NCBI GenBank assembly: GCA_943357895.1
Contig: CALRGO010000001.1
Span: 36,724 to 100,723 of the forward strand
Source: Parcubacteria group bacterium
Lineage (GTDB): Bacteria; Patescibacteriota; Minisyncoccia; UBA6257; UBA11618
Reading direction: 5' to 3'
DNA: 64,000 nt
The translations under genes were made by a program, and so were the position numbers. Shown piece by piece: positions 25,150 through 58,769 of this stretch; the first letter of the stretch is position 1; each line of letters opens with the position of its first letter. The notes under the pieces are model-generated. The model had not been told where the DNA came from. It ran no database searches and saw only the letters and a program-made list of their open reading frames with translations.

Positions 25150-25305
25150 CCGGCGCGCACGCGCTTTTCGGAAACAGGGTAACTTTTTTCCTGCGAAAAA
25201 GTTCCCTTCGCTCTCGGCCTGATAAATCCATCTGCGGATGGATTACCCAGAGCTATCAGGCCTCCGAGATGTTCCTTAAAGCACGTCCACGCCGGCTTTT
25301 TTTGC
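25150..25305 (+). ncRNA. highly structured ~150-nt region immediately 3' of pnp, ending in a GC clamp plus T7 (terminator / possible sRNA)
   Basis: Outer pairing GCCGGCG...CGCCGGC followed by ttttttt; internal hairpins GGG-T-AACTTTTTT...AAAAAGTT-CCC and GGCCTGATA[AATCCATC-tgcg-GATGGATT]...TATCAGGCC. Confidence 0.4.
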
Positions 25306-25766: not shown

Positions 25767-25785
25767 GTTTTCGTGGGCGAGCGGA

Positions 25786-25977
25786 CCCTTCGTGCCAAGG
25801 CAACCTGAGTGGAGGCGGATAGCAAATCCCCGAAGAAGGAGATAAAAGCCGAGGAAAAATTGCTGTCTGAGTTCCGCAGCGCTTGCGCGGAGGGCGAGTT
25901 CGATTTTTCCTGTCGGCTTTTACGACGAGAGAGGTTGGATTTGCATACGCCGTAACGGGTTGCCGCGGCACGAAGGG
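25786..25977. ncRNA. candidate structured RNA, paralog 1 (~190 nt)
   Basis: ~93% identical to the reverse complement of 58579-58769. The terminal 11-bp helix CCCTTCGTGCC/GGCACGAAGGG is replaced in the paralog by CCCGTAGCGCC/GGTGCTACGGG, which is compensatory. There are inner helices GGCAACC/GGTTGCC and TAAAAGCCGAGGAAAAA/TTTTTCCTGTCGGCTTTTA. No conserved ORF. Confidence 0.5.
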
Positions 25978-26032: not shown

Positions 26033-27112
26033 ATGGATGAATTAAACCAAGCCTCGCAAAACAGCAGCCTGCCGCAGGTACCACCACCACAAACTAATAT
26101 CGTGCCGCCGCCGCCCACGACACCAGAAGTGCTCGTGCGCACGATGGAGAGCGATATACAATCCGTACGCGCAACCGGCGAACCGGTGGCGCAACCTGTG
26201 ACCCCACTTCGCCCTTCGGGCTTCGCGGGGCAAGCGCCCATCACCCCACAAATAACACCAGTCGCACCTGTAGCCGCGCCCGTACAATTCCCCACACAAA
26301 CGGCGCCAGCGCCCGCCCCAATGCCCGCAACCGAAACAAAATCCGGTAGACTCCTCCTGTGGTTTTTCATACTCACTCTTATCGTCGGTATCGGTTGGGC
26401 GACGTATAAATACGGCCTACCTGCGTACCGCGCGATGGTGCCAAGTAAACCAACAGCCGAAGCGCCTGCGCAGGGAGTAGCGCTAGAGCCGAGCGCAGCA
26501 GGACTCGCCGTACCGCCTGAACCAGCACCCGTAGCGCCCGCAATAACGCCGCTCGGCGCAACGCAAGATGCATTACCTAAGATAGAAACCGACGGTACGC
26601 TGCCCTCGATTACTGCGGCGCTCGTAGCTGAAGCCAAAAAGACAAAGTCAGCAAGCGGAACCATCCAGGAAGTCTCCCTACTTAATGCCGGCGCGCCGAT
26701 GAGTTTCGCTACCGTACTAGGGGTACTCTTACCGGAAGCGAAGACAAACGGCTTGGATGGTATTCTTACCGCCGCCTTCGACCCTATCTTTTCCGCATAC
26801 CTCTTTTACGACGACCGCGGCGCATGGCCCGGCTACATAGCCAAAATTAACCCCGCTTCCCAAATAGACGCCGCAACTCTCGCGAGCCGTTTGCAAGCTG
26901 TCGAGACAAGCTCATACAAAAACCTCTTCCTCGTAGATGCCGGCGCACCCACCACATTCCGCACCGGCCAAGCGCGCGATAAGTACATCGACCGCTTTGT
27001 ACCCTTAGCAACCGACGGTGCGCTTTTCAGCTACGGTATCTTCGGCGACTACGTGATCATTAATACCTCCAATAACGGATTAGTGAAGGCTCTGGATCTG
27101 TTAAAGCTGTAA
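26033..27112 (+). CDS. proline-rich single-pass membrane protein (hypothetical)
   Basis: 359 aa: Pro-rich N-terminus, one TM (LLLWFFILTLIVGIGW), and a C-terminal globular domain. Contains the in-frame GC-rich repeat at 26201-26238. Confidence 0.55.
   Translation: MDELNQASQNSSLPQVPPPQTNIVPPPPTTPEVLVRTMESDIQSVRATGEPVAQPVTPLRPSGFAGQAPITPQITPVAPVAAPVQFPTQTAPAPAPMPATETKSGRLLLWFFILTLIVGIGWATYKYGLPAYRAMVPSKPTAEAPAQGVALEPSAAGLAVPPEPAPVAPAITPLGATQDALPKIETDGTLPSITAALVAEAKKTKSASGTIQEVSLLNAGAPMSFATVLGVLLPEAKTNGLDGILTAAFDPIFSAYLFYDDRGAWPGYIAKINPASQIDAATLASRLQAVETSSYKNLFLVDAGAPTTFRTGQARDKYIDRFVPLATDGALFSYGIFGDYVIINTSNNGLVKALDLLKL
26201..26238. repeat. GC-rich repeat element, copy 2 (encodes TPLRPSGFAGQAP)
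   Basis: accccacttcgcccttcgggcttcgcggggcaagcgcc. Confidence 0.7.
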
Positions 27113-29908: not shown

Positions 29909-31708
29909 ATGAATACTAGCAAAAATATGAACGACCGGCAAGCAGAAGCGGCCTACCACAAGGGAGGGCCGCTCCTTATTGCCGCGGGTGCCGGAAGCGG
30001 CAAAACACACACCCTTACGCAACGCCTGCATTATCTTTTAAATGAACTAAAGGTGCCACCGGCGCGCATTCTCGCCATCACTTTTACGAACAAGGCGGCA
30101 GAAGAAATGAAGAAGCGCGCCGGCGCCCCCAAAGAACTTTTCATCGGCACATTCCACTCCTTCGGCGCACGTCTCCTCCGCGCCGAAGCGCGCCGGCTCG
30201 GCCGGAGTGTCGGCTTTACCATCTTCGACGAAGACGATACCGGCTCACTCCTTAAAAAAATTGGTAAGAACCGCAACCTACCAAAAGAGACGTGCGGCCC
30301 CGCCGTATTGTCGCGACTCATGGGTAAAGTAAAAAGCGAATTCATAGCACCCGAAATGGCGGCTAAAGGGACGCGCGACTTAGACCCCGATACCGCCCGC
30401 GCCTGCTACGAGGACTACGAAAACCTCCTTAAGGAAAACAACGCGTTCGACTTCGACGACCTCATCGAAAAGCCCGTGCAATTGTTCCGCAATTACCCCG
30501 AAGTACTTGAACTCTATCGTGGCAAGTACGACCACGTACTGATAGACGAATACCAAGATATCAACGCCGCGCAGTACGAACTCGTACGCTGTCTCGCAGG
30601 TGGCCACGGCAACCTGAGCGTAGTGGGGGACGACGCGCAGTCCATCTACGCCTTCCGCGGCGCTGACTTCCGCAACTTTTTAAACTTCGAACGCGACTGG
30701 CCGGCCGCAAAGATCGTCATGCTGGAAGAAAATTACCGCTCGACCCCGTTAATACTCGAAGCAGCGAACGACGTTATCGGCCACAATAAAACTCAGCGCA
30801 AGAAAAACCTGTGGACGAAAAATGAGCAGGGCGAAAAGATTAAAGTCTTCGCGGCGGAAAACGAATATATGGAAGCCGAATGGATTGTGAAGACCGCCAT
30901 TACCAATTGGCGTAAGGGAAAGCCACTCGAATCCATGGCTGTAATCTATCGTACCAACGCGCAGTCACGGCCAATAGAACAAGCGCTTATTTCCGCGGGC
31001 GTGCCATACCGTATGTTCGGCGGTATCCGCTTTTACGAACGTAAAGAAATAAAAGATATTGTGGCTGGTCTGCGCTTGGCGGCAAATCCGTTAGATAGCG
31101 TGAGCGCCGACAGGCTCGACAAGAATTTTTCCAAAGGCAAAAGCCGCCTCCTTATAGACGCCCTACCGAAGATGGGCAGCGCATCACCCAGTGAAATCAT
31201 CGACTACTTCGTTTCAAATACTAACTACCTCGACTACTTAAAGAATAACTATAAGAACTCGCAGGAGCGTATCGAAAACGTACGAGGACTTTTAACCTTT
31301 GCGCGCGACTTTGCAAAAGACGGTTTAGCCGCGTTTTTAGAACAAGCAACCCTAGCGCAGAGCCATGACAACCCGAGTGGGAAGACAGGCGTAAACCTCA
31401 TGAGTATTCACATGTCGAAGGGGCTCGAATTCGAAAGCGTATTCGTCGCCGGCGTAGGCGAGGGCACCTTGCCGCACCACCGCGCGCTTTCCTCCGGCGG
31501 CGAAATGGAAGAGGAGCGGCGCTTAATGTACGTGGCGATTACCCGCGCGGCGAAGCATTTACATATGTCCTTCTCAAACGTCCCCTCAAGATTCCTCTAC
31601 GAGATATCCGGCGACTTGGTCGAATTCATAAATAATAAAGTTTCGTCTAATCGAGCTAACCGTCAAGGCATGCCCGACGAAGAAGAAATGTGGCTGGATT
31701 ACGATTAA
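29909..31708 (+). CDS. UvrD/PcrA/Rep-family SF1 DNA helicase (short, 599 aa)
   Basis: Walker A AGAGSGKTHTL, motifs II DEYQD and VGDDAQSIY. Confidence 0.85.
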   Translation: MNTSKNMNDRQAEAAYHKGGPLLIAAGAGSGKTHTLTQRLHYLLNELKVPPARILAITFTNKAAEEMKKRAGAPKELFIGTFHSFGARLLRAEARRLGRSVGFTIFDEDDTGSLLKKIGKNRNLPKETCGPAVLSRLMGKVKSEFIAPEMAAKGTRDLDPDTARACYEDYENLLKENNAFDFDDLIEKPVQLFRNYPEVLELYRGKYDHVLIDEYQDINAAQYELVRCLAGGHGNLSVVGDDAQSIYAFRGADFRNFLNFERDWPAAKIVMLEENYRSTPLILEAANDVIGHNKTQRKKNLWTKNEQGEKIKVFAAENEYMEAEWIVKTAITNWRKGKPLESMAVIYRTNAQSRPIEQALISAGVPYRMFGGIRFYERKEIKDIVAGLRLAANPLDSVSADRLDKNFSKGKSRLLIDALPKMGSASPSEIIDYFVSNTNYLDYLKNNYKNSQERIENVRGLLTFARDFAKDGLAAFLEQATLAQSHDNPSGKTGVNLMSIHMSKGLEFESVFVAGVGEGTLPHHRALSSGGEMEEERRLMYVAITRAAKHLHMSFSNVPSRFLYEISGDLVEFINNKVSSNRANRQGMPDEEEMWLDYD

Positions 31709-31724
31709 TATTGATTCAGGATTT

Positions 31725-32558
31725 ATGATTCAGGATTCAGGAATAACCGAAGTACCGAAAGCCAAGAAGTCCCTTGGGCAGCATTTTTTGATAAACAAGA
31801 AGGCGCTCTTAACAGTTGCCGAATCACTAAAGATTACCGAGGAAGACACCGTCATCGAAGTAGGTCCGGGTCACGGAGAACTTACGGACTTGCTTATTGC
31901 CTCGCCCGCTAAAAAAATTATCGTTATCGAAAAAGATCACGAGCTCGTGGAATTACTTAAAGAAAAATACCGCAGTGTCGGAACGACCCAGGGACTAGCT
32001 GACCGTCTTACCGTCACGGAAGGGGACGCACTCAAAGACCTCGCGCCCATCATCGCGGATCTTAAAACGCCCTACGTCCTCGCCGGCAACATCCCGTACT
32101 ACATCACGGGTTACTTGCTCCGCATAGTAGGCGACATGGAACGCAAGCCCCTCCGCACCGTTTTCACTATCCAAAAAGAAGTGGCTCTACGTATCTGCGC
32201 CGTAGCTCCCGACATGAACCGCCTCGCCGCCTGCGTGCAAATTTGGGGCACGCCGCACATCGCAATGAAATTAAAACCAACGGACTTCAACCCACCGCCC
32301 TCGATCGACTCCGCAATTATCGCAATCGAAACCAAAGCCGACACGCTTACCGGCACGAGTCTCGCAAACTACTACGAAACGGTGGGTATTCTCTTCCAAC
32401 AACCCCGCAAAACAATTTTAAATAACTTATCTAGCGGTTTTAACATCCCTAAAGAAAAAGCCCTCAGCCTCTTAACCCAAGTTGGTCTCACCGGCACTGA
32501 ACGCCCCGAAAATCTTTCTACCCTAACCATTCAAAAAATTGCCGAATCAACCCACTAA
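31725..32558 (+). CDS. rsmA: 16S rRNA (adenine1518/1519-N6)-dimethyltransferase RsmA/KsgA
   Basis: LGQHFL and VIEVGPGHGELT SAM-binding motifs. Confidence 0.85.
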   Translation: MIQDSGITEVPKAKKSLGQHFLINKKALLTVAESLKITEEDTVIEVGPGHGELTDLLIASPAKKIIVIEKDHELVELLKEKYRSVGTTQGLADRLTVTEGDALKDLAPIIADLKTPYVLAGNIPYYITGYLLRIVGDMERKPLRTVFTIQKEVALRICAVAPDMNRLAACVQIWGTPHIAMKLKPTDFNPPPSIDSAIIAIETKADTLTGTSLANYYETVGILFQQPRKTILNNLSSGFNIPKEKALSLLTQVGLTGTERPENLSTLTIQKIAESTH

Positions 32559-32610: not shown

Positions 32611-33414
32611 GTGGAAGCGCATAGCAGTTATCCACTAACTTCTCCGTCATTTCTACGGTATCCTAAAGAGGTGTTAGGGCTCAAAGCAAAAGCAGGCCTG
32701 TTGTTTTTCGTATGCGCTGGCGTTTTCGTCGGCCTTGTCGTGTTCGGCAACACTGTTGCCCGTAATGAAATGAATACCGACTCTGAAAAAAAGGCTGACT
32801 CTACCGCCCCACAAGCAATCGACTCGCTCCAAAACGCCATCGGCGAATCGGTGCCGATTACAACCGAAGCGCAACCTGAAATTACGCCTATAGGCACGCT
32901 AACAGCGAATAGCGATACCAACCTCACGCGTAATCTCGCCGCACTTATTGGTAAAAACATCGTGGATAAAAATCCCGAAGGGCCAGCGGGGGATAACCTT
33001 ACCGTTATGGGTGCAGACGGCATGGCGGATATCGCGGTTACAGAATCACTTAAAAACTTTAACCCTGCATATTTCTCTCCCGAGATCCTCCAGAGCGAAC
33101 TTATAACCCTCAGCACGCAAACAGCCGCGGCATACCGCGCAGAAGCCGAAAGAATAATAGCCGAAACGGAAATGCAAACCCCGCCGCCGATAGGCGACCT
33201 CATCGCAAGCCAAATGGCGGAATTTGCACGGCGCTATAAGACGCAAGGCGCCGCCCTCCGCGCACTCCCCGTACCATCCGCACTTACAACAGAACACATG
33301 AAAGCCATCCGCATAGCGCTCGGTAAACAGCGCATATTCGAAGCTGTTGCGGATTACGAAAATGATCCGATATACGCCATGCTCGCGCTTAAGTTATTAG
33401 ACACTCTCAAATGA
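32611..33414 (+). CDS. hypothetical single-pass membrane protein, first gene of the T4SS-like operon
   Basis: TM near the N-terminus (LLFFVCAGVFVGLVVF), periplasmic remainder. True start uncertain (possibly GTG near 32670). Confidence 0.45.
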   Translation: MEAHSSYPLTSPSFLRYPKEVLGLKAKAGLLFFVCAGVFVGLVVFGNTVARNEMNTDSEKKADSTAPQAIDSLQNAIGESVPITTEAQPEITPIGTLTANSDTNLTRNLAALIGKNIVDKNPEGPAGDNLTVMGADGMADIAVTESLKNFNPAYFSPEILQSELITLSTQTAAAYRAEAERIIAETEMQTPPPIGDLIASQMAEFARRYKTQGAALRALPVPSALTTEHMKAIRIALGKQRIFEAVADYENDPIYAMLALKLLDTLK

Positions 33415-34787
33415 AACGTATTCTCGCATCACTTGCCATATCGTTCCTTGTACTCGGTGTTTTACCTGCGCTCCCCAAAGAGCGCGCGCACGCCCAGTTC
33501 GGGATAGATGCCGCCGTCACCTTAGCGGCAGAAGCTGTACAAGAAACCATAAAAAAACGTTTCTTCGACATGATCGTCGACCAAATGGTGAACTGGATCC
33601 AAGGTGGTGGCAAGCCCTTATTTATACAAAACTGGAACGCCTTCCTCGCCCAGTACGGCAACATCGTGACCGGCGACCTTTTAGCCGAAATGAAAATAGC
33701 GGGCATCTGCCGGCCGTTCGGCATGCAGTTGCAACTCGCCGTGCTCCAACCCCCGCGCTTTTCGGGTCAAATACGGTGCACGTTAGACCAAGTCGTGCGC
33801 AACATGGTCGGCTTTTATAACAACTTTTCGACCGGCGGTTTCGTGGCATACCGCGAGCAATGGCAACCGCAAAACAATTTCTACGGCGCACTGCTCCTTG
33901 CAATAAATGAAAAAGAAACCCGTATTGCGGACAAACGCTTTGCTGGACTGCAAGAAGCGCAAACAGGAGGTGGCTTTTTGGGTCAGAAAAAATGCGATGA
34001 GAACGGGCGAAATTGCCGTATCGTGACACCCGGTATGCAGATAGGTGCTGCGGCCGCGAAAGTAATCGGCGCCGACCTCGACTACATTGTTAACTCTAAA
34101 AGCATGGCGGCATATATCGCCGCGATTTCAGACGCACTCATCAACCGCGTCGTCCGCGAAGGCGTGAGCGGGTTCCAAGGCGTGGTATCCGCGAACGCTC
34201 CGCAAATCGGCTACATCCCCACCCAACCCGTAAACGCCGCACCCTGCTCCGGCCTCACGGGCGATGCCTTAAATGCATGCCGCGCACTCGAAGGATATAA
34301 AACGGGCAACGCGACGCTTATTAAAACAAGTCACATGACGCAAATAAGCGACACCTTAACCCCACTCCTCGCTGGGCTTACGGACTTACTCGCCATACAA
34401 TCCGCACAGCAAGTACTTGTAAACCGCACAAGCGAACTAAATAACTGCCAAATTGGCAGGGGGGTAAGTGGTAGGGAAATAACGATAACGGCGCTCGCCG
34501 TGGAGCAAAAAGCGCTCGAAGACGTGACGGTGGCGATTACGCAACTCCAGCAAATAACGACCCCACTTACAAACGCGAAAAATACGCTCATGAACGAAAC
34601 GAGTACCGACTTCGACGTGCTTTCGAGCTATATGACGGGGCAAGCCGGCGTGGGTCGCCTCCTAAACAAGTCGCAAGCCGAGGCGTACGCCGCAAAAACT
34701 AAGGCGGATCGCGACGCCCTTACGGCACGCTCGGCTACGCGCCTACCCGAACTGCAAATATTACTGCAAAAATGCATAAGCTCATAA
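33411..34787 (+). CDS. secreted hypothetical protein (458 aa) with signal peptide
   Basis: Cleavable signal (..LPALPKERAHA); overlaps neighbours by 4 and 16 nt. Confidence 0.55.
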   Translation: MKRILASLAISFLVLGVLPALPKERAHAQFGIDAAVTLAAEAVQETIKKRFFDMIVDQMVNWIQGGGKPLFIQNWNAFLAQYGNIVTGDLLAEMKIAGICRPFGMQLQLAVLQPPRFSGQIRCTLDQVVRNMVGFYNNFSTGGFVAYREQWQPQNNFYGALLLAINEKETRIADKRFAGLQEAQTGGGFLGQKKCDENGRNCRIVTPGMQIGAAAAKVIGADLDYIVNSKSMAAYIAAISDALINRVVREGVSGFQGVVSANAPQIGYIPTQPVNAAPCSGLTGDALNACRALEGYKTGNATLIKTSHMTQISDTLTPLLAGLTDLLAIQSAQQVLVNRTSELNNCQIGRGVSGREITITALAVEQKALEDVTVAITQLQQITTPLTNAKNTLMNETSTDFDVLSSYMTGQAGVGRLLNKSQAEAYAAKTKADRDALTARSATRLPELQILLQKCISS

Positions 34788-37700
34788 GAACTATCGCAAT
34801 AATTGTCACCCTCACAACGCTTTTCGGTGCAGTTATTTTTACACACGCGCAAATGGCAATGCCTAATATCCCCGGGCAAGACATGCCAATAAAAGTCCAA
34901 GAGACGGCAAAAAATAATCCCGGAGCGCAGACCGTCAGCCCAAGTTTCAATCCTATTCCCACCGTTGCCGACATAGTAAGCGGCATAGGCGGATCCTTCT
35001 TGGGTTGGATCAGCTTAAAGGCCATCGGCTACGTCTCATTCACGCTAAGCTATATCGCCGGACTTATCGGCTCGACGGCGTTTACGCTCGCGGGAATCTT
35101 AGTAGAATTAGGTCTCTATTTCAACACCACAATCCTCAACAGTCCGATAGTCCAGCTCGGCTGGCGCTTCTGCCGCGACCTCGCGAACTTAGGCTTCACG
35201 ATTGGTATTGTAGTCATCGCATACGCCACTATGCTCGGCATCGAAAGCTATGGCATGAAGAAGATTCTTATAAACTTCGCCTTCGCGGCTATTATCGTAA
35301 ACTTCAGCTTCTCTATAGCGGGGTTCGCGATAGACATATCGAACATGCTCACGCACTTTTTCGTGAACGCCTCAATCGGGGGCGGTGGCGTGTCGGGGTC
35401 AGGGGCAAACATCCATAAATTTGCCGAAACTCTTGCATCCGCCTTCAGCCCGCAAAAACTACTTATAACGGACTCTCTCAATCTAAAGGCATACGAGTCG
35501 CTTGCGGACGACGGCATGATTGCCGCAGTAATATCTATATTCTTCGTCGCGCTCTTCACCGCCCTCGCCGCGCTCGGCATGCTTATGGTAGGACTTACCA
35601 CTATTTCGCGATTTATACGTCTTTCAGGGCTTGTAATTGTCATGCCAATTGCAATCCTTTGTGCCGCATTCCCCAACACAAGAAAGTGGTGGGGGAAATG
35701 GTACGATGATTTTTTTAGCCAACTTACCTACCTGCCCATAGCGACATTCTCTATGTATCTCGTCATTATGTTCGTGCAAATTAAGGCGGATGTGGGATTC
35801 GAAACAAAAGGGATAGATATGAAAAATCTCATAAATTCCTTTGAACAGGCAAAAACTGCGGGGAGCGGAATTACCGCAACCAAGACCCTTGAGCTGATGG
35901 CTGCGCCGCTTCAAACGATTACGGATATGGTACTCGTACTTGCCATGTTATTCATCGGCATCACCAAGTCGGCTAAATTGAGCGGCGCGGGAGGGGATAT
36001 CGCTCTCAAGTGGACGACGGGGTTGAAAGACTGGGCAGTAGGCGCGCCAAAAGGAGCTGCCGGATGGGCGGGCCGTAAATACTTGAGCGGCGGCGGAGAC
36101 GGAACAAAAGAAGGTAATCGTGGCACGCGGCTCGCAAGCTTTTTACAACGAATCCCTCTCATTAGTCGTTTTGCGCCCCAAGTAAATAAATTCGCCGCAG
36201 GGACGAGTAAAAATCTCGGCAATCTCGAAACTGAATACAAAGGTATGGGCGACGTACAGCTACGAAACGCCCTCTACAACCCCGACATTAAGCTTAACCC
36301 CGAGCGCATGGCGGCGGCGGCAAAAGAAGCCGTTGCGCGCGGACTACTGAACAACACCGATCAAGAAAAAAATATATCACAGGAAAAATTAAACGAATTT
36401 ATCCCCGCCCTCAAACGCTACGGCTTCGACACAGAAATATTAAAGAAGGCGCCGCATCTCTATGGTAAATTCGGCTTAAATATTGAGAAAAACAACGAAG
36501 GGGAATATATAAATAAGGAAGATGGTAAAAAGCTTGACGACGCCATAAAAGCCTTTAAGCCCGAAGATGGGGAAGATCTGCCCGTGGAGGCGCTTGAGGA
36601 CATTGAAGTGGTTCGGCGGCTTTCCGGCGACCAACTAGCAAAACTACCGAAGAACAAAGAACATCGCGCGGCATTCTCAGACACCATCATCCGCCTACGA
36701 GAAAAAATAGGGTCTACGGAATTCGATAAGTATATGAAAAAAGCGTTTGCCAAAAAAGAAGCGGCGGCAGCACTCACCCCACAACTTCTCGGTAATAAAG
36801 ATGTAGTCCGTAATCTCACAAACGATCATTTAAAGTATCTCAGTGACACTGGAAAGGAAAAACAACGAGATGCATTCCTTGCGACTATCAACGAAAAAGA
36901 TACCACCACTGGAGAATACAAGTTATCAGAAAAAGAATTCACCGAATTCATGGGGAGTAATTTTGCAAAGGCTAAAGACATCAACGAAATTAATCCGGAT
37001 ATCATCCGCAACGATCGCATATTCGGCAAGCTGCAGGGGATGCATATCAGCCAACTCCAAAAAGAACCGGAAACGGCGCAACATATTGCCGTGCTCGAAA
37101 AATTACGCGACGAATACCGAAACGCTTTTGCTGACCCAAAAACCCTTACCCGCCTTGATAGCCTCGCAAAAGTTATCGTAGATAACAAAGATAATTCAAC
37201 TTGGAGCGCAATCGATACAGCTGAAGGAAAAGCCCCGTTCAACGAAATCGAAATGGATTACCGTAGGCGCCACCCCGACGAAGAAAAACAGCAAAAGAAA
37301 GAAAAAATAAAAGTAGAGATAAAAGAAGAAAAGCAGAAAGAAAAAGGGTGGTGGGAAGATGATAATAAGGGGGGTAATCCGCCGAGCGCAGGCCCGCAGA
37401 AGCCCCCTCAAAATCCGCCCGCACCACCCTCCTCACCAACAGGAGGATCGGCTTCAGTAGCACCGACATATACGTTAGCACCACAAAAACCAACACAGCC
37501 GGTAACACCACCTCCGCAGCCAGCGCCCGCAACCACTCCGCAGCCGAAGCCGACACCTAATAAACCTCAGCGCACGGAACCCAAAGAAACGGAACCAACG
37601 AACTCAAAGGGCCCTGATATCGGAAGAATGATAGACGCCGTACTGGAGAGCGAATCAAGAACGAATAACCCCGAATACGTCCTGCAGGAAGAATTCCCAG

Positions 37701-37930
37701 AACCACCCCCACTCCTCGTACCTATGACACCAAAGACGACGCCGATTGCGCCGCCTGACCTCAACAAGCTCGCAAGGATTGAAGAAAATCCAATACAAGA
37801 GGGAAGTAAGACTGCATCCGTTACGGCAACGCCCCCACCCACCCCGATTCTACCCGAACCGATACGTACCACCTTGCAGAAAGAAAAGGATGAGAAGGAT
37901 AATCAAGAAAGGGGAAATAACACCATATGA
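34772..37930 (+). CDS. large polytopic membrane protein, VirB6/TrbL-like, with long K/E- and Pro-rich C-terminal extension
   Basis: 1052 aa: signal peptide, ~6-8 TM helices in residues ~70-330, then a coiled/charged region and PPSAGPQKPPQNPPAPP... tail. Confidence 0.5.
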   Translation: MHKLIRTIAIIVTLTTLFGAVIFTHAQMAMPNIPGQDMPIKVQETAKNNPGAQTVSPSFNPIPTVADIVSGIGGSFLGWISLKAIGYVSFTLSYIAGLIGSTAFTLAGILVELGLYFNTTILNSPIVQLGWRFCRDLANLGFTIGIVVIAYATMLGIESYGMKKILINFAFAAIIVNFSFSIAGFAIDISNMLTHFFVNASIGGGGVSGSGANIHKFAETLASAFSPQKLLITDSLNLKAYESLADDGMIAAVISIFFVALFTALAALGMLMVGLTTISRFIRLSGLVIVMPIAILCAAFPNTRKWWGKWYDDFFSQLTYLPIATFSMYLVIMFVQIKADVGFETKGIDMKNLINSFEQAKTAGSGITATKTLELMAAPLQTITDMVLVLAMLFIGITKSAKLSGAGGDIALKWTTGLKDWAVGAPKGAAGWAGRKYLSGGGDGTKEGNRGTRLASFLQRIPLISRFAPQVNKFAAGTSKNLGNLETEYKGMGDVQLRNALYNPDIKLNPERMAAAAKEAVARGLLNNTDQEKNISQEKLNEFIPALKRYGFDTEILKKAPHLYGKFGLNIEKNNEGEYINKEDGKKLDDAIKAFKPEDGEDLPVEALEDIEVVRRLSGDQLAKLPKNKEHRAAFSDTIIRLREKIGSTEFDKYMKKAFAKKEAAAALTPQLLGNKDVVRNLTNDHLKYLSDTGKEKQRDAFLATINEKDTTTGEYKLSEKEFTEFMGSNFAKAKDINEINPDIIRNDRIFGKLQGMHISQLQKEPETAQHIAVLEKLRDEYRNAFADPKTLTRLDSLAKVIVDNKDNSTWSAIDTAEGKAPFNEIEMDYRRRHPDEEKQQKKEKIKVEIKEEKQKEKGWWEDDNKGGNPPSAGPQKPPQNPPAPPSSPTGGSASVAPTYTLAPQKPTQPVTPPPQPAPATTPQPKPTPNKPQRTEPKETEPTNSKGPDIGRMIDAVLESESRTNNPEYVLQEEFPEPPPLLVPMTPKTTPIAPPDLNKLARIEENPIQEGSKTASVTATPPPTPILPEPIRTTLQKEKDEKDNQERGNNTI

Positions 37931-38649
37931 CACTCGAACAAATTGCCCGCCTCTACGTAATCTTTAAGACGCTCCAACCGGAAATTAAAGAATGGATCGC
38001 GTCCGACGACACGAGCGCCATCGTGAAGTCTATTGCCGCGCGGTTTATCTTGTCTGACGAACAGGAGCGCAAGCTCCCACTACTCGTCCTCCGTCTTGTC
38101 ACGCAAGATTTACCACCAGAAAGCTTTAAAGCAGAGCTTGCGAAAGAAACGGGTGTGGACGCAGATCTCGCTAAAAGCATTACTGAGGCGATAGCAAAAG
38201 AGGTGATAGAGCCCATCGGAGCGGCCCTCCGCTATGGCGGGATAAACACGAACCTCTTAGGGTTCAACGCTCCGGCTCCCACTTCCCCACTTCGCCCTGC
38301 GGGCTTCGAGGGGCAGGCGCCTACGCATTCCGAACCAGCGCCACAAGCGCAAACTACAACTGAAGCGCCTACGGAAACCGTCACCACGCCAGCACCGACA
38401 CCTCTACAACCGTTCATCCTCCACGAAGAGCCGCGCGCAGCAGCCGCACAAAGCGGTACGAGGTCCTTCAGTTACTCCCCACAGGCGGATACGGGCGTGG
38501 AAAGCACCGCTTCTCCGCGCGTCGTAATCGAGCGCGTCGTGCATTACAGCCAACTCCGCACCCCGCTTAATATTGCGAGCACAAATAAAAATATACCAAG
38601 CGGAGATCAGCCAAAACCCAAGCTGCCACAATCTAAGTGGTTCGTATAA
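37927..38649 (+). CDS. hypothetical protein (240 aa) with in-frame GC-rich repeat
   Basis: Overlaps upstream gene by 4 nt. Repeat at 38285-38321 encodes PTSPLRPAGFEGQAP. Confidence 0.5.
   Translation: MTLEQIARLYVIFKTLQPEIKEWIASDDTSAIVKSIAARFILSDEQERKLPLLVLRLVTQDLPPESFKAELAKETGVDADLAKSITEAIAKEVIEPIGAALRYGGINTNLLGFNAPAPTSPLRPAGFEGQAPTHSEPAPQAQTTTEAPTETVTTPAPTPLQPFILHEEPRAAAAQSGTRSFSYSPQADTGVESTASPRVVIERVVHYSQLRTPLNIASTNKNIPSGDQPKPKLPQSKWFV
38285..38321. repeat. GC-rich repeat element, copy 3
   Basis: ccccacttcgccctgcgggcttcgaggggcaggcgcc. Confidence 0.7.
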
Positions 38650-39131
38650 AACCCATGCAATTCCAAGTACCACAATACATCGATGTCGAGGATAAGATTG
38701 TAGGACCCTTAACCCTTAAGCAGTTTTTCTATATCGCGACGGGATTTCTTACGATATTCGTTTCATTCTTTATTCTTACGACATGGCTCTGGCTTATAAC
38801 GTCCGTAGTTGTCGGCTCCACATCACTCGCCTTTGCGCTTATAAAATATAATGGCAGACCGCTCATGACCGTGACCATCGCCGCCCTGCACTACTATATG
38901 GGCGGGCGCACCTATACGTGGCAAAAAATAGATATAACGAAGAGACAGGCTCCGGCAGGATTACTCGCAAAACTCGGACTCACTATGACAGCAGGCACGC
39001 GGCCAGTTGCGGGGCGTGAAACATCCGTAAACGGATTCTTTAGCCGCAGCCTGCCGGCACAAGATAGGGCGGAAATAATCCGCCGCACAGATGGCGACAG
39101 AAGCGTCGCCAAACGAATAGACTATAGGTAA
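38637..39131 (+). CDS. PrgI/VirB3-like small two-TM T4SS protein
   Basis: 164 aa with a GPLTLKQFFYIATGF motif followed by two TM helices, positioned directly upstream of the VirB4-like ATPase as VirB3/PrgI homologs typically are. Confidence 0.5.
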   Translation: MVRIKPMQFQVPQYIDVEDKIVGPLTLKQFFYIATGFLTIFVSFFILTTWLWLITSVVVGSTSLAFALIKYNGRPLMTVTIAALHYYMGGRTYTWQKIDITKRQAPAGLLAKLGLTMTAGTRPVAGRETSVNGFFSRSLPAQDRAEIIRRTDGDRSVAKRIDYR

Positions 39132-39140
39132 AATCTAAAT

Positions 39141-39842
39141 ATGGCTCAAGAACCTCTCGCAACCCAAAACCTCCTCGAAGTCGAACGCATCGAGCGCAAC
39201 TGCATCGTGCTGAAAGACGGCGGCCTGCGCTCGGTGATTCTCGTATCGGGCATGAACTTCGAACTGCGCTCGGAAGACGAGCAAAATGCAGCACTAGGGA
39301 GCTACCAAAATTTCCTAAACGGACTCGATTTTTCCGTACAGATTTTTATACATTCACGAAAAATTAACATCGACGGATACATACAGGAACTTTCGGGTAT
39401 CGAGCGGCAGGAGGTGAATGATTTATTAAAAGGGCTTATCGGGGGGTACAAAGACTTCGTGGCTTCCCTTGTTGCCGACAACCCGATTATGGAAAAAACA
39501 TTTTTCGTAATCGTGCCGTACGACTCCGTACTACCCGCAAACCAACGCGCGATATTCGACGCTATTGCCGGATTCTTCAAGCGGAAAAAAGTAGATGACC
39601 CCACTTCGCCCTCTGGGCTTCGAGGGGCGGGCCCCACCCCCGACTCGCAAAATGAAAGCGCACGCACCGGCGTAGGGGACAGTGCTTTTGCCGCACTCGC
39701 CCAGCGCACCGAGCAGGTAGTAAGTGGCCTTTCGCAAATCGGCCTGCGCGCCGTACCACTCGAAGAAGACGAGCTCGCGGAACTCTTATACAACCTCTAT
39801 AACCCCGAAACAGTGGAACGCCACGTCATCCCACAAGAATAA
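39141..39842 (+). CDS. hypothetical T4SS-associated protein (233 aa), weakly reminiscent of a VirB4 N-terminal region
   Basis: IVLKDGGLRSVILVSGMNFEL...FSVQIFIHSRKINIDGY block. Carries the in-frame GC-rich repeat at 39597-39635 (DDPTSPSGLRGAGPTP). Confidence 0.45.
   Translation: MAQEPLATQNLLEVERIERNCIVLKDGGLRSVILVSGMNFELRSEDEQNAALGSYQNFLNGLDFSVQIFIHSRKINIDGYIQELSGIERQEVNDLLKGLIGGYKDFVASLVADNPIMEKTFFVIVPYDSVLPANQRAIFDAIAGFFKRKKVDDPTSPSGLRGAGPTPDSQNESARTGVGDSAFAALAQRTEQVVSGLSQIGLRAVPLEEDELAELLYNLYNPETVERHVIPQE
39597..39635. repeat. GC-rich repeat element, copy 4
   Basis: gaccccacttcgccctctgggcttcgaggggcgggcccc. Confidence 0.7.
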
Positions 39843-39846
39843 ACCC

Positions 39847-41541
39847 ATGAAAAAAGATCTCGCAGATATCATTGCCCCGCCGGAAATAACTATTGCCCCA
39901 ACCCATATGAAAGTGGGGAAGAAGTTTGCGCGCACGGTTTTCGTTTCTAACTACCCCCGTTACCTTTCTACCGGCTGGATGAGCCCCATTATTAACGCGC
40001 CCGAGCTTATGGACATAAGCATCTTCATGCATCCGGCCGATACCGCAGACACCCTAAAGAAGCTCAAGCGGAAAACGGCGCAAATAGAAGCCCAGCTCAT
40101 GGACCAAGAAGAAAAGGGGTTGGTACGCAACCCACAACTTGAAACCGCATACCAAGATGTGGAAGGTCTGCGCGACTCACTCCAACAAGCGCGCGAACAC
40201 CTCTTTATGGTGGCGCTCTATATCACATTCTATGCCGACACATTAAAAGATCTCGACGTACTCGAAGGTCGCGTCGTGAACATGCTCGAAACAAGATTAG
40301 TGTACGCAAAACAAGCAACATTCGAGCAAATGGAAGGCTGGAATTCCACGCTCCCTATAGCCGCAGACCGGCTCGCAGTACACACACCCATGAATTCCGG
40401 CCCCGCGTCGTCCTTATTCCCATTTGTCGCAACTGACCTTACGGGAGACACAGGCATTTTGTACGGCGTTAACCGCACGGACAACACGCTCGTAATCTTC
40501 GACCGGTTTAGCCTTGAAAACGCGAACATGGTCATCTTCTCCAAGTCTGGTGGTGGTAAGTCATACGCAGCTAAACTCGAAGCAATTCGCCTTATGATGA
40601 CCGGTGTCGACGTGATAATCATCGACCCTGAACACGAATACAAAGCGCTTGCGGAGGCCGTGGGTGGTAGCTTTATAAACGTTTCGCTTGCTTCCACTGA
40701 ACATATTAATCCTTTTGATATACCATCCGTCCCCGAAGACGAAAGTGATGATGATGCATTAAAGTCCCACGTGGTAACCGTTGCCGGCCTCATAAAGATG
40801 ATGGTGGGCGCAATCACTCCCGAAGAAGAGGCAGTACTCGACCGCGCGATTACCGAAACCTACGCGATGAAAGATATTATCGCAGGAAAAGACTTCTCTA
40901 AAAAAACCGCCCCTGTTCTTTCCGACTTAAAGACCGTCTTAGAAAGCCTCGAAGGGGGTAAATCAGTTGCCGAGCGTCTCTATCGGTTTACGGACGGCAG
41001 CTATTCGGGGTTTACGAACTTCCCTACCAATGTCGACCTCGGCAACCGCCTCATTGTCTTCTCTCTTCGCGACCTCGAAGAGGGTCTACGCCCCATCGCT
41101 ATGTATCTCGTGCTTAATTTCATCTGGAACGTCGTCCGTGGAAAAATAAAAAAACGCGTTATGATTGTGGACGAAGCGTGGTGGCTTATGCGCTACCCCG
41201 AAGGCGCACTATTCCTTTTTGGGCTCGTAAAGCGCGCGCGTAAATATTATTTAGGTGTCACAACCATTACGCAGGACGTCGAGGACTTTCTTTTATCACC
41301 TTACGGTCGCCCTATTATCACCAACTCATCACTCCAGCTACTGCTTAAGCAGTCGCCTGCAATGATGGACGTACTCCAAAAAACGTTCAACCTATCAGAG
41401 GGGGAGAAGAGCCTCCTTCTTGAAACGCCCGTCGGCCAAGGACTCTTTTTCGCGGGGACGAAGCACGCCGTCATCCAAGTACTCGCCTCATCACCCGAAG
41501 ATAAGGTGATTACCACCACCCCGCATGAACGAGGAAAATAA
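39847..41541 (+). CDS. VirB4/TrbE/CagE-family type IV secretion ATPase (Gram-positive PrgJ/TraE-like)
   Basis: N-terminal YPRYLSTGW...MDISIFMHPADT region, Walker A FSKSGGGKS, Walker B VMIVDEAW. The ATG lies 5 nt after the upstream stop; the ORF-track start 39724 is a read-through extension. Confidence 0.8.
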   Translation: MKKDLADIIAPPEITIAPTHMKVGKKFARTVFVSNYPRYLSTGWMSPIINAPELMDISIFMHPADTADTLKKLKRKTAQIEAQLMDQEEKGLVRNPQLETAYQDVEGLRDSLQQAREHLFMVALYITFYADTLKDLDVLEGRVVNMLETRLVYAKQATFEQMEGWNSTLPIAADRLAVHTPMNSGPASSLFPFVATDLTGDTGILYGVNRTDNTLVIFDRFSLENANMVIFSKSGGGKSYAAKLEAIRLMMTGVDVIIIDPEHEYKALAEAVGGSFINVSLASTEHINPFDIPSVPEDESDDDALKSHVVTVAGLIKMMVGAITPEEEAVLDRAITETYAMKDIIAGKDFSKKTAPVLSDLKTVLESLEGGKSVAERLYRFTDGSYSGFTNFPTNVDLGNRLIVFSLRDLEEGLRPIAMYLVLNFIWNVVRGKIKKRVMIVDEAWWLMRYPEGALFLFGLVKRARKYYLGVTTITQDVEDFLLSPYGRPIITNSSLQLLLKQSPAMMDVLQKTFNLSEGEKSLLLETPVGQGLFFAGTKHAVIQVLASSPEDKVITTTPHERGK

Positions 41542-41947
41542 GCCGGAGCCTAAAATAGGCGGCATCGAAGCTTTAGTCATGGTCGGGCTCGCAGCTCTCT
41601 TTGATATTGCAGATCTTCTTGCCACATTTCTCGACGCTTTTTTCGGTATGGGGGAGCTTATTAAGTTTTTTATCAACATTGTCGCTTCCGTAACGCTCTG
41701 GCTGTGGGTTATTATGAAGGATGTGGGGCCGACGCGGATACTTGCAGGGTCGATTTTGGAATTAGTGCCGATTATAAACGTCCTGCCGATGCGCACTGTA
41801 GCGATGGCTGCGACTATATGGCTCGACTGGCACCCGAAAGAAGCAGAGATCGCGGAAGATTTTATGCCGAAAATTAAAAACCCTAAGCGCATGCTCGGAA
41901 AAAAAGCTCTTGCCGCAAAGGCAGCTAAAACAACGCAAGCCCTATGA
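41525..41947 (+). CDS. hypothetical membrane protein (140 aa)
   Basis: 3-4 TM helices; overlaps the VirB4-like gene by 17 nt. Confidence 0.45.
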   Translation: MNEENKPEPKIGGIEALVMVGLAALFDIADLLATFLDAFFGMGELIKFFINIVASVTLWLWVIMKDVGPTRILAGSILELVPIINVLPMRTVAMAATIWLDWHPKEAEIAEDFMPKIKNPKRMLGKKALAAKAAKTTQAL

Positions 41948-42501
41948 AGAATTCGATTCTAATCCTCTTATTATTTTTACCGGTTATTTCGTATGCCGCG
42001 CCGGAAGCTATTCTTACATGGAAGGCAGCTTCGTACGTTCCAGAAAATTACAAGGGTAAGATATTACCTGTTGCGGGTACGCCAATCGATGTATCGGTGA
42101 TTCTTATTGATGGGGGTAAAGTAATAAGCCTCGCCCCCTATGATATCAATTGGTACGCTGGCGAAGACCGCATAGCGGGGGGTAAGGGCATAATAAAGGT
42201 ACGCACCGTAGCACCCATCACCGGACAAGACTCTCTTGAGTTGCGGGTAAACGTGAGCAAATACAAAGATCAACCGCTCGACGAATTTATAACTATACCC
42301 GTAGTGCGTCCCGAGATTTTAATACTAAAAAAGCCTAACGCACAAAAACAAGATTTTTCCATTATTCCCTATTTTTGGAACATTATGAAGCCGAGCGAGC
42401 TCACGATAGCATGGGAGGACGGGGGAGATACTATTACCGCCCGCGCAATAAATAAAAAGAACGAAATGGAATTTGCCCAACTAACTACTCCAAAACAATG
42501 A
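41944..42501 (+). CDS. secreted hypothetical protein (185 aa)
   Basis: Signal peptide MKNSILILLLFLPVISYAA; 4-nt overlaps with both neighbours. Confidence 0.5.
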   Translation: MKNSILILLLFLPVISYAAPEAILTWKAASYVPENYKGKILPVAGTPIDVSVILIDGGKVISLAPYDINWYAGEDRIAGGKGIIKVRTVAPITGQDSLELRVNVSKYKDQPLDEFITIPVVRPEILILKKPNAQKQDFSIIPYFWNIMKPSELTIAWEDGGDTITARAINKKNEMEFAQLTTPKQ

Positions 42502-43328
42502 AACGAATCCTCGTACTATCATTACTATGCTATAGCCTCCTTATTGGGGGGGTGGTACAGGCTCAATCACAATATGACTTTGATTTCGTAGGCCCTAAAC
42601 AGGATCCTCTTGCACGGTACGGCGCAGTGGCAGGCGGCGACCGATGCGGACCGCAATTCAACGGCGACTATATTCTCTGTCAATCAACAGGCGGGATCAT
42701 AAGCCAAACGCAAACGAACTTCGCCGCATTCTTGCGCGAGATGTACAACCTCGCCTTTATTCTTGCTGGTACTGTCGCCTTTATACGTATCGTCTACGGC
42801 GGAATACTCTATAGCTGGAGCGGTGTAGTAGACCGCAAAAAAGAAGCAATTAACATATTCAAAAACGTCGCTTACGGTATAGCACTCCTTATGGGGTCGT
42901 ACGTCGTCTTAAATACCATCAACCCCGCACTCACTATTCTCGCGTTGCCAAACGTCACTATGGGGACGCCGCGAAGTTCGCGCAACGACGTGCCAACTCT
43001 ACCGCTTTCATCGTTAAACGAAATGCCCTCCGAGCTCGATCTTCTTGATACATCCATAGAATCTATACGGCAGGAAAACGTAAACCGAATTAACGCGCTC
43101 GATATATATAACAGTGGTACGAGAGAACAGCAGGCGACCATCGATCTTATCAATAATGAGATAAATCAAATCGGCGTTCCTGACACACCAGAACAAGACA
43201 GGCGTCTTGCTGAATTACAGGGAATGCTTATCCAAATAAATCAAAGCGAAGCGCAGATAGAAGCCGACGTTAAATCTGTTACAGATACGCCACCCAAGCA
43301 ATTCCAACGCACTAAGACCGCGCCATGA
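42498..43328 (+). CDS. signal-peptide protein with two hydrophobic helices (possible VirB2/TrbC pilin-like) and coiled C-terminus
   Basis: Signal MKRILVLSLLCYSLLIGGVVQA, and hydrophobic pair FILAGTVAFIRIVYGGILY / VAYGIALLMGSYVVL. Pilin assignment is speculative. Confidence 0.4.
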   Translation: MKRILVLSLLCYSLLIGGVVQAQSQYDFDFVGPKQDPLARYGAVAGGDRCGPQFNGDYILCQSTGGIISQTQTNFAAFLREMYNLAFILAGTVAFIRIVYGGILYSWSGVVDRKKEAINIFKNVAYGIALLMGSYVVLNTINPALTILALPNVTMGTPRSSRNDVPTLPLSSLNEMPSELDLLDTSIESIRQENVNRINALDIYNSGTREQQATIDLINNEINQIGVPDTPEQDRRLAELQGMLIQINQSEAQIEADVKSVTDTPPKQFQRTKTAP

Positions 43329-44188
43329 ACAAGGTACTCTTTATAGCAGTCACCATAGTACTCGTGGCGCTTTTCGGCACTGTTATTTATTACGGTATGC
43401 AGGCACTTGAACCACATACATATATCCCACCGGAAGAAGAAATTAATGAAATAACGAAAAGTGCGCCCGAAGCAACCGTTATATTACCGGTACTCCCCGG
43501 ACTCCCTACAAAAAAAATCCCTAGTGATGACGCTGTAACATTAAATTCATTTGAGCCCGTGAAAGTTCTATCTACAGAAGAACAGGTTACCTACCTTGCG
43601 ACGTCAACCATCCGCGAAGTGAACGCCCAAAAACTCTTTTTCGCCCCGTACGACAGCAATGCATTCCCGTACAGCAAGAATGATATTTTTATCATCGAAA
43701 AGCCGTCGAGTCTCGTACGCACGTCTTTATGGACGATAAACACTGCAACTAAAACAATGGTGCGTGTAGCCGGCCCGAGCTTCGGATTAATGGCGCGCTG
43801 GTCAAAGAACGGCCGGTATGTTTTTACCATGAGCACGGATACGGCAGGCGCATTATCGCTTTCGTTTATCGACATGAAACTAAAAACAACCACACCACTC
43901 CGCATAGCCACACTCCCATCTAAATGTTTCATCATGGACGCTAGCCCTATAATGTACTGCGGCGTTCCACAGGGCGCGCCCGAGGGAGCAGTATTACCAG
44001 ACGACTATTTGAAAGGAAAATTCATATCAAGGGATCGCATTGTAAAAATAGATTTTAAAACTCCCAAGGTGACGGAGCTGTGGAATGGCGAATCAGAATC
44101 CCTCGACATCCAAAACCCCGCCGTCATCGGCACAGAATTATTCTTCGTGAACAAAACCGACGACTCCGTCTGGAAGTTGGCGCTGTAA
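43325..44188 (+). CDS. N-terminally anchored beta-rich hypothetical protein (287 aa), last gene of operon
   Basis: TM MNKVLFIAVTIVLVALFGTVIYY followed by a beta-strand-rich domain. Confidence 0.45.
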   Translation: MNKVLFIAVTIVLVALFGTVIYYGMQALEPHTYIPPEEEINEITKSAPEATVILPVLPGLPTKKIPSDDAVTLNSFEPVKVLSTEEQVTYLATSTIREVNAQKLFFAPYDSNAFPYSKNDIFIIEKPSSLVRTSLWTINTATKTMVRVAGPSFGLMARWSKNGRYVFTMSTDTAGALSLSFIDMKLKTTTPLRIATLPSKCFIMDASPIMYCGVPQGAPEGAVLPDDYLKGKFISRDRIVKIDFKTPKVTELWNGESESLDIQNPAVIGTELFFVNKTDDSVWKLAL

Positions 44189-44279: not shown

Positions 44280-44437
44280 TTCGGTTATATCTAGTAAGCC
44301 GGCGTGGACGTGTTTTGAGGAACATCTCGGAGCCCTAATGGCTTAGTCAGACGCCCGCAGGCGGATGCATTGGGGTGAGAGCGAGCATGTTTCCGAAAAG
44401 CGCGTGCGTGCCGGCTTATTAAGCACTGCATGAGTAA
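44280..44437. ncRNA. candidate structured RNA (~160 nt) between the T4SS-like operon and jag, ending in a bidirectional terminator at 44438-44468
   Basis: Closing helix AAGCCGGC...GCCGGCTT, a CCGGCUUAUU tract, no ORF. Flanked by inverted heptamer arrays. Identity not assignable from sequence alone. Confidence 0.25.
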
Positions 44438-44468
44438 AATAAAAAACGACGCACGTCGTTTTTTTATC
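44438..44468. terminator. bidirectional terminator (AAAAAACGACG-cac-GTCGTTTTTTT)
   Basis: Seen directly. Confidence 0.6.
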
Positions 44469-44491
44469 TACCCACTAATCACTATCCACTC
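44468..44491. repeat. heptamer tandem array (CACTANC form)
   Basis: ctacccactaatcactatccactc. Confidence 0.55.
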
Positions 44492-44493
44492 TG

Positions 44494-58578: not shown

Positions 58579-58769
58579 CCCGTAGCACCCGGCAACCCGT
58601 TGCGGCGTATGCAAATCCAACCTCTCTCGTCGTAAAAGCCGACAGTAAAAATCGAACTCGCCCTCCGCGCAAGCGCTGCGGAACTCACACAGCGATTTTT
58701 CCTCGGCTTTTATCTCCTCTTTCGGGGATTTGCTATCCACCTCCACTTAGGTTGCCTTGGCGCTACGGG
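58579..58769. ncRNA. candidate structured RNA, paralog 2 (inverted relative to paralog 1)
   Basis: Reverse complement is ~93% identical to 25786-25977, with compensatory terminal-helix changes. Lies directly after holA with no intervening terminator. Confidence 0.5.

Follow-up and report, generated by a model that had tools for sequence, protein, structure and literature searches.

What is a conjugation-type machine doing beside the replication origin of an ultrasmall bacterium, where it came from and what it moves are the questions raised by one locus of the Parcubacteria group bacterium. The locus spans positions 32611-44188 of a 64-kb stretch of contig CALRGO010000001.1 (the window, meaning the whole stretch that was analysed), which is a Patescibacteria (candidate phyla radiation, CPR) chromosome around oriC. 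It is a genuine and well preserved type IV secretion system (T4SS) operon, relaxase-less and placed beside the origin, in a Harrisonbacteria-like genome of this radiation. It is almost certainly an instance of the Patescibacteria-clade T4SS described from 2023 to 2025, and no new kind of system. An earlier sequence-only reading of this DNA had held such machinery to be undescribed in reduced-genome lineages, a view already overtaken by two publications (PMC10633639 in 2023 and PMC12102498 in 2025). For its nature as a whole, we consider it likely that this is a vertically inherited chromosomal system of the Patescibacteria, derived from monoderm conjugation machinery, which lost the DNA-processing half and now forms a host-interface pilus or channel.

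The locus consists of 11 tightly packed open reading frames (ORFs) on the plus strand, called g1 to g11 here in their order (Table 1). Applied to identical public contigs, an independent gene caller likewise placed 11 genes between ksgA and jag, with a fifth product of 158 aa from its preferred start, ATG 38655. Both the ORF list and this caller therefore set the count at 11, not at the 12 of the sequence-only reading. The packing by 4-17-nt overlaps that it described was found at eight junctions but not at the other two: the first four junctions overlap by 4, 16, 4 and 13 nt (the fourth becomes a 5-nt gap with the start at ATG 38655), the fifth and sixth are gaps of 9 and 4 nt, and the last four overlap by 17, 4, 4 and 4 nt. 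A terminator scan found no convincing plus-strand terminator inside the 11-gene block, and in a scan for the operon limits the frequency of promoter-like sites did not exceed that in shuffled sequence. Upstream lie uvrD and ksgA; downstream follow jag, yidC and rnpA on the minus strand and then dnaA and dnaN. The GC content of the locus is 0.47-0.525, the same as that of its flanks, so that no compositional island stands out.

The identity of the system is carried by its VirB4 ATPase, g7. Judged, like all family matches here, against Pfam gathering scores or NCBIfam curated cut-offs, this protein matches NF045971 (CD1110 family) with E 1.3e-113 and 380.7 bits (cut-off 325) and PF19044 with E 9.7e-24, and Walker A (SGGGKS) and Walker B (MIVDE) motifs are readable in its sequence, as had been noticed before. 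By profile match it is a VirB4 of the MPF_FATA (monoderm, CD1110/PrgJ) type. The VirB4 model aligns to g7 only from model position 186 onward, so g7 is without the VirB4 N-terminal domain; the Gram-positive-type N-terminus formerly assigned to it is in fact a separate TrsD-like gene, g6, which sits 4 nt before g7. This smaller protein matches NF041427 (TrsD/TraD, E 5.5e-7), the N-terminal part of the full-length VirB4 model NF045975 (E 6.2e-8) and the TraC-like family PF26593, and its profile also matches the N-terminal part of the 797-aa VirB4 of Clostridium botulinum pCDC3875 (E 2.2e-6). The two genes are separate in 63 of 78 related loci and make up one ORF of 785-803 aa in the remaining 15, where the fused forms are collinear with the pair in the window. 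Because fused collinear forms exist and the g6 profile matches the N-terminal part of full-length VirB4, TrsD is, on these alignments, the VirB4 N-domain split off, the outcome of natural gene fission or fusion and not of a frameshift error. VirB4 homologues number at least 8,000 at E<=1e-10. The closest, at 95% identity, and those that carry a name among the best 120 come from Candidatus Harrisonbacteria, Parcubacteria or Paceibacteria, and the best plasmid VirB4s, which are from monoderms, are only 30-37% identical to g7. In this similarity ranking, g7 appears to group with Patescibacterial VirB4s and not with those of plasmids or integrative and conjugative elements.

A split ATPase could also be read as a sign of decay, with the locus as a pseudogenising remnant. 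VirB4 does occupy two ORFs in different frames, and GC-rich repeats have been inserted in g4 and g6. However, most related loci have the split, the starts and stops of the two genes are clean, purifying selection on both is strong, and dN/dS (the ratio of nonsynonymous to synonymous substitution rates) is <=0.23 in all genes of the locus; the repeats, too, lie in frame and in variable loops. On these grounds a frameshifted VirB4 pseudogene was rejected, and a remnant of any kind, contradicted by selection and synteny, is barely credible.

The other core components are arranged around the ATPase. A two-transmembrane (TM) PrgI/VirB3-like protein before VirB4 and a signal-peptide protein with a pilin-like core had both been proposed from the sequence, and both proposals are borne out by matches above the gathering score (g5 to PF12666, g10 to PF18895). 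In g10, the signal peptide is followed by a pilin core at residues 73-137, which ends in TINPxL, and by a variable C-terminal extension of 140 aa. The PF18895 core is present in 27 of 28 orthologues, two orthologues match TrbC too, and the TINPxL motif is conserved at the end of the core; the N- and C-terminal extensions are hypervariable, with orthologue lengths of 145-541 aa. In a distant relative (locus L073, 14596-15516, plus strand), the C-terminal extension of the pilin-like orthologue matches the SLT lytic transglycosylase family with E 0.0039, below the gathering score, a hint that in these pilin-like proteins a variable extension may act as a functional module outside the cell. The third component, g3, is a probable extended VirB6. 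By hydropathy, it has a signal peptide, about seven TM segments within residues 93-404 and a hydrophilic, repeat- and Pro-rich tail of about 650 aa, and it lies upstream of PrgI and VirB4, in the same place as PrgH of pCF10 and CD1112 of pCDC3875. The VirB6-like assignment made earlier thus keeps its polytopic topology, long tail and gene position, but not the profile evidence, which is weighed below.

Is the locus inherited vertically or carried by an element? The synteny sample comprised 80 Paceibacteria-type genome loci, all of them from Patescibacterial metagenome-assembled genomes, with VirB4 identities of 54-95%, and the block uvrD-ksgA-(T4SS genes)-jag-yidC-rnpA-dnaA-dnaN is conserved across them. 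Matches to individual genes, in counts limited by the 10-kb flanks, are given in Table 1. In comparisons with the two nearest relatives (about 95% identity in VirB4), dN/dS values, which are rough with dS near saturation, range from 0.02 to 0.23 for all 11 genes and indicate purifying selection, with about 0.23 for g1, about 0.10 for g4 and about 0.03 for VirB4, whose constraint equals that of DnaA and UvrD. The fastest-changing genes are those of the pilin, g1, g3 and g8, at 52-70% amino acid identity; the pilin gene evolves fastest of all, with 52-66% identity in relatives whose VirB4 is about 95% identical. The divergence of each gene follows that of its housekeeping neighbours. By these measures all 11 genes are real and functional and their exposed parts diverge fast, the surface and membrane parts evolving the fastest.

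The same data bear on whether this is simply the conjugation module of an integrated element whose relaxase, type IV coupling protein (T4CP) and integrase lie beyond the window. For such an origin speak the CD1110 conjugative family of its VirB4, a core order like that of pCF10 and pCDC3875 and the VirD4-like genes found elsewhere in many Patescibacteria (PMC12102498). Yet the oriC-side position is the same in all 80 genomes despite their range of VirB4 identity, neither the gene divergence nor the composition sets the locus apart from its neighbours, and relaxases occur in only 103 of 3,035 Patescibacteria genomes (PMC12102498). Furthermore, no relaxase, T4CP, VirB11, SLT or integrase was found in the 64-kb window by family scans, for which plainly housekeeping ORFs were judged by eye and the rest were scanned; the sequence-only reading had noted their lack in and beside the locus. 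A GspE/PilB-type secretion ATPase between ruvC and ruvB (PF00437, E 2e-109) was considered as VirB11 and rejected with 52 bits on the VirB11 model against a cut-off of 250, and no other pilus genes stand beside it in the window. As its place beside oriC is fixed and its synteny extends over a whole class, the locus is probably not a conjugative element, and a conjugation module with its missing parts farther away is highly improbable.

The published Patescibacterial systems supply the closest match. Quinonero-Coronel et al. (2025) described a monophyletic VirB4 clade nested in MPF_FATA from 2,407 Patescibacteria assemblies, with TrsD as the most abundant partner and with PrgI/VirB3, VirB6 and VirB2-like pilins near virB4; the virB4 neighbourhood of Paceibacteria is rich in dnaA, dnaN, rnpA, ksgA and rpmH, and the Microgenomatia context is similar (PMC12102498). 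The locus in the window shares with this clade the MPF_FATA-type VirB4, the adjacent TrsD-like gene, PrgI/VirB3, a VirB2-like pilin and, at sub-threshold level, the VirB6-like protein, as well as the lack of a nearby relaxase or T4CP and the chromosomal place by dnaA, dnaN, rnpA and ksgA. It differs in having one pilin gene, whereas arrays of 2-11 genes are typical of Saccharimonadia and Microgenomatia, and in having no peptidase or lysozyme directly downstream of virB4. In addition, it has Paceibacteria-wide partners without annotation (g1/g2, g4, g8, g9 and g11) and two species-specific in-frame repeat insertions. In the Saccharibacterial Southlakia epibionticum, transposon sequencing by Wang et al. 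(2023) showed a T4SS (SEML1_0006-0019) without recognisable coupling and relaxase proteins to be essential for epibiotic growth (PMC10633639).

Other known systems resemble the locus in part. The Prg/Pcf system of pCF10 and the CTn2-like system of C. botulinum pCDC3875 share the CD1110/PrgJ VirB4 family, the order VirB6-like, PrgI, VirB4 and the lack of an outer-membrane core, but they have a T4CP (PcfC/CD1115), a relaxase, a PrgK/SLT hydrolase, PrgL (VirB8-like) and adhesins, all of which the locus in the window is without. Compared with these Gram-positive systems, VirB4 is split here, and a VirB2-like pilin is present here whereas pilins are lacking there. TrsD-TrsE of pGO1 and TraD-TraE of pIP501 likewise have a separate small homologue of the VirB4 N-terminus immediately before the ATPase; in 15 of the 78 loci related to ours, that domain and VirB4 are one protein, and the rest of the pGO1 module is absent. 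The ComB system of Helicobacter pylori shares the VirB2/3/4-like set and possibly a VirB6-like protein, the lack of T4CP, VirB11 and relaxase and a chromosomal, non-mobile state. However, ComB has a VirB7-10 outer-membrane core and works with ComEC, while the locus here has no such core (family scans of the 11 genes gave no match to VirB7, 8, 9 or 10) and its VirB4 belongs to the monoderm clade and not to the MPF_T clade. The archaeal importer Ced (CedA/CedB) also combines a VirB4/HerA-like ATPase with polytopic membrane proteins and has no relaxase; g7 gives 24.5 bits with CedB (cut-off 700) and 22.4 bits with CedD (cut-off 600), both partial and sub-threshold, and no CedA-like protein was identified in the locus.

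What distinguishes the locus is its set of lineage-specific partners. Six further secreted or membrane proteins of no recognisable family had been counted beside the core; five are indeed secreted or membrane proteins without a family. The protein g4 has no TM or other hydrophobic segment by hydropathy and is therefore probably soluble and not secreted. In the alignment, its N-terminal domain is helical and conserved, a variable linker rich in Pro comes next, and the C-terminal part holds conserved motifs (PFxLHEE, RVVHYS and SKWF) and a basic tail; the protein has no family or PDB match. The bitopic g1 gave no match in Pfam, NCBIfam and PDB-profile searches (PDB up to E 1); with this result and a sequence that is mostly helical by eye, it was rejected as a VirB8-like protein. 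The signal-peptide protein g2 contains a conserved, Cys-containing N-domain and a C-terminal antiparallel helical bundle. Its family has 5,678 cluster representatives at E<=1e-3 and, despite this size, no Pfam or NCBIfam match. The two proteins are fused in L044, L059, L060 and P0224 (in P0224 with an hhalign probability of 99.7% and E 1e-25), and since they form a single polypeptide in some lineages, g1 and g2 probably act together.

Of the remaining partners, g8 has no family match and was rejected as a second pilin, as none of 30 orthologues matches PF18895 or TrbC. The AlphaFold2 model of g9 is all-beta with a pLDDT of 67, and Foldseek returned generic Ig-like matches only (E about 2e-3); the predicted fold, a tandem beta-sandwich and not NTF2, speaks against g9 as a VirB8-like protein. 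The anchored g11 has no Pfam or NCBIfam match, and its profile matches the PDB weakly at Aip1 WD40 (E 8.2e-5) and TolB (E 2.7e-4). No similarity was detected between these six accessory proteins and the VirB4 neighbours in pCF10, including those of its Prg/Pcf system, and pCDC3875. As positional counterparts of proteins in these two plasmids, g3, g4 and g8 were tried with hhalign and hmmsearch, which found nothing.

How might such a set of parts work? The machine probably descends from monoderm MPF_FATA (CD1110/PrgJ-type) conjugation machinery whose DNA-processing half was lost. The split VirB4 (g6 and g7) would dock as a hexamer on PrgI and the VirB6-like platform and extract the VirB2-like pilin from the membrane, building a tube or channel through the cell envelope. 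The Sec-exported partners would provide wall-spanning or tip parts, namely g2 with g1 as its tether, the Ig-like g9 and the beta-propeller g11. The tube or channel would then engage the host cell of this ultrasmall bacterium for contact-dependent exchange of macromolecules, not for conjugation. VirB4 is known to dislocate pilin, and in Agrobacterium the formation of the T-pilus does not require VirD4. Such a pilus or host-interface mechanism has, in our judgement, an even chance of being correct. Tubes reaching from a cultivated relative toward its host have been seen, and their authors regard them as possible T4SS pili (bioRxiv 10.64898/2026.06.21.733656).

Several points weigh against this account of a host-interface machine. 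The match of g3 to PF04610 (TrbL/VirB6), with E 2.4e-4, does not reach the gathering score, a match to that family is seen in just 3 of 30 orthologues, and comparisons of g3 with PrgH of pCF10 and CD1112 of pCDC3875 by hhalign and hmmsearch were negative. No VirB8-like (PrgL/TraM/TcpC) or VirB1-like (PrgK/SLT) component was detected in the locus when the profiles of g1, g9 and g11 were compared with the PDB and all unknowns with the proteins of pCF10 and pCDC3875. The structure models of g2 and g9 have no T4SS-specific fold, and the 140-aa C-terminal extension of g10 is atypical for a polymerising VirB2. VirD4-like homologues occur away from virB4 in most Patescibacteria (PMC12102498), and the search for relaxase and T4CP covered the 64-kb window. 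Finally, the requirement for epibiotic growth has been shown only for Southlakia.

If the machine is indeed a pilus or channel at the host interface, its cargo could be imported host nucleic acids or nutrients, or exported proteins. Since VirB4-only systems without a T4CP are either pilus assemblers or importers (ComB, Ced), we lean slightly to import over the export of proteins. Reviews leave the role of the Patescibacterial T4SS open and propose effector delivery or nucleotide acquisition (PMC11665869, PMC12857230). The sequence-only reading had likened the locus to ComB-type uptake or a host-interaction apparatus; both ideas had already been proposed (PMC11665869), and the window does not decide between them.

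An import machine like ComB or Ced, drawing in host DNA, RNA or other polymers as a source of nucleotides, is a tentative possibility. The gene set parallels the inner part of ComB (VirB2/3/4/6-like, with no T4CP, VirB11 or relaxase), and Patescibacteria generally are without de novo nucleotide synthesis, according to the literature on the group and not from this genome. In Southlakia, growth does not require comEC but does require the T4SS (PMC11665869, PMC12857230); transformation needs ComEC and type IV pili, and the essentiality of the T4SS is independent of ComEC (PMC12857230). The 2026 preprint that shows the T4SS-like tubes also reports feeding on host RNA (bioRxiv 10.64898/2026.06.21.733656). 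A weak sign is that a UvrD-type helicase and comM/YifB are kept nearby in some loci, as both are housekeeping genes. On the other hand, a nucleic-acid-binding or nuclease domain was not found in the 11 genes, the Ced matches stay far below their cut-offs, equivalents of ComB7-10 are absent, and the Patescibacterial T4SS has not been tied to uptake by any experiment. A more specific version, in which a VirB4-only importer braced or tipped by g1/g2, g9 and g11 breaches the host envelope and draws in host nucleic acids, is rather unlikely; if true, it would make the locus a feeding organelle derived from conjugation machinery, with the g2 family (>5,000 representatives) as a core part.

Alternatively, the system could be an effector translocator that exports proteins onto or into the host and recruits its substrates without a T4CP, as Bordetella Ptl and Brucella VirB do. 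T4SSs that secrete proteins without a T4CP are known (PMC12102498), and Wang et al. consider protein export or some other role more plausible (PMC10633639). Within the operon, several products have signal peptides, g4 is probably soluble, with conserved C-terminal motifs and a basic tail, and the long tail of g3, probably cytoplasmic, could recruit substrates. Nevertheless, neither in the locus nor beside it was a domain of effector or toxin type identified, and in a monoderm Sec-exported proteins are already outside, which leaves the need for a T4SS unclear. Export of effectors is accordingly unlikely in our estimate.

Whichever cargo a host-interface pilus or channel may handle, this T4SS class is found almost throughout a radiation that, by estimate, makes up about a quarter of bacterial diversity, and it is essential for epibiotic growth where tested. 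To this we add an explicit list of the 11 genes that make up the Paceibacteria-type locus, TrsD as a split-off VirB4 N-domain that is fused in about a fifth of related loci, the fusion link between g1 and g2, with g2 in a very large family without annotation, and a constraint that falls from VirB4, at the level of DnaA, to the pilin and membrane parts, which evolve fast. These additions are useful as targets for work on function and would not surprise a specialist.

Table 1. Positions of the T4SS genes and of other features in the 64-kb window, with the number of synteny loci that contain a match.
Feature	Position	Strand	Length (aa)	Description	Loci with match
g1	32611-33414	+	267	bitopic membrane protein, TM residues 28-46, helical outer domain; lineage-specific accessory	32/80
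g2	33411-34787	+	458	signal-peptide protein	43/80
g3	34772-37930	+	1052	candidate extended VirB6, polytopic (hydropathy, gene position, weak PF04610)	57/80
g4	37927-38649	+	240	probably soluble protein	26/80
g5	38637-39131	+	164	PrgI/VirB3-like, two TM; PF12666 E 7.5e-9, above gathering score	74/80
g6	39141-39842	+	233	TrsD/TraC-like, VirB4 N-terminal domain as own gene; NF041427, NF045975 N-part, PF26593	78/80
g7	39847-41541	+	564	VirB4 ATPase, middle and C-terminal P-loop domains; NF045971, PF19044	80/80
g8	41525-41947	+	140	small polytopic membrane protein; conserved motifs KIS..E, MKG, E.IP..N.LP.RT	32/80
g9	41944-42501	+	185	signal-peptide protein, two predicted beta-sandwich (Ig-like) domains	50/80
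g10	42498-43328	+	276	VirB2-like T4SS pilin; PF18895 E 1.6e-6, above gathering score	32/80
g11	43325-44188	+	287	N-terminally anchored, ectodomain a probable beta-propeller (TolB/WD40-like)	40/80
uvrD	29909-31708			upstream of locus	
ksgA	31725-32558			ends 52 nt before locus	
GspE/PilB-type ATPase	52807-54210	+		between ruvC and ruvB	
GC-rich 28-nt repeat core	38287-38314	+		in frame, linker of g4	
GC-rich 28-nt repeat core	39601-39628	+		in frame, variable loop of g6	
GC-rich 28-nt repeat core	26204-26231	+		inside coding sequence	
GC-rich 28-nt repeat core	11441-11468	-		inside coding sequence	
359-aa protein gene	26033-27112	+	359	upstream of comM	
125-150-nt element	25152-25302	+		just 3' of pnp	
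125-150-nt element	44292-44417	-		just 3' of jag	
(A)GTGGRTAGTGAKTAGTGG copies	9921, 10847, 12241, 27114, 44187	+		stop-codon-rich motif	
(A)GTGGRTAGTGAKTAGTGG copies	3072, 4379, 27189, 55613, 44468-44492	reverse complement		stop-codon-rich motif	
184-nt inverted repeat pair	25782-25965, 58590-58773			both intergenic	

The repeats in g4 and g6 belong to a small family. Their palindromic core, CCACTTCGCCCNNNGGGCTTCGNGGGGC, occurs in four exact copies in the window against 0 expected, all inside coding sequence and in the sense direction, with two frames used (PLRPAGFEGQA and TSPSGLRGAG). That two genes of the locus carry an in-frame GC-rich repeat had been seen before, and both hold the exact core. 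Copies are found only in same-species contigs; L001 and L075, the closest relatives, with 95% identity in VirB4, have none. They are therefore recent in-frame insertions, reminiscent of Rickettsia palindromic elements. The repeats have no unusual fold stability. One further copy lies in the gene of a 359-aa protein upstream of comM, which has a Pro-rich N-terminus, one TM segment and no family match. An M23 peptidase is encoded 2.7 kb upstream of the locus on the opposite strand, and any link between it and the T4SS is speculative.

An Rfam search of the window returned tRNAs only, and three other elements were observed. The first, of 125-150 nt, has two copies that are 78% identical, each in the orientation of the gene that it follows. 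A closing stem, AAGCCGGC...GCCGGCTT, is common to both, and they have no Rfam match; RNAalifold predicts 35 pairs, 6 of them with compensatory changes, and the jag-side copy is also present in close relatives. The element is a candidate structured RNA or 3' element. The second is an inverted repeat pair of 184 nt, 93% complementary and 32 kb apart; it contains no convincing ORF, and its Rfam matches do not exceed chance. The third, the stop-codon-rich motif (A)GTGGRTAGTGAKTAGTGG, is recurrent in intergenic DNA; in the copies inspected, it lies immediately past stop codons in the orientation of the upstream gene, and it occurs on both sides of the convergent spacer between g11 and jag.

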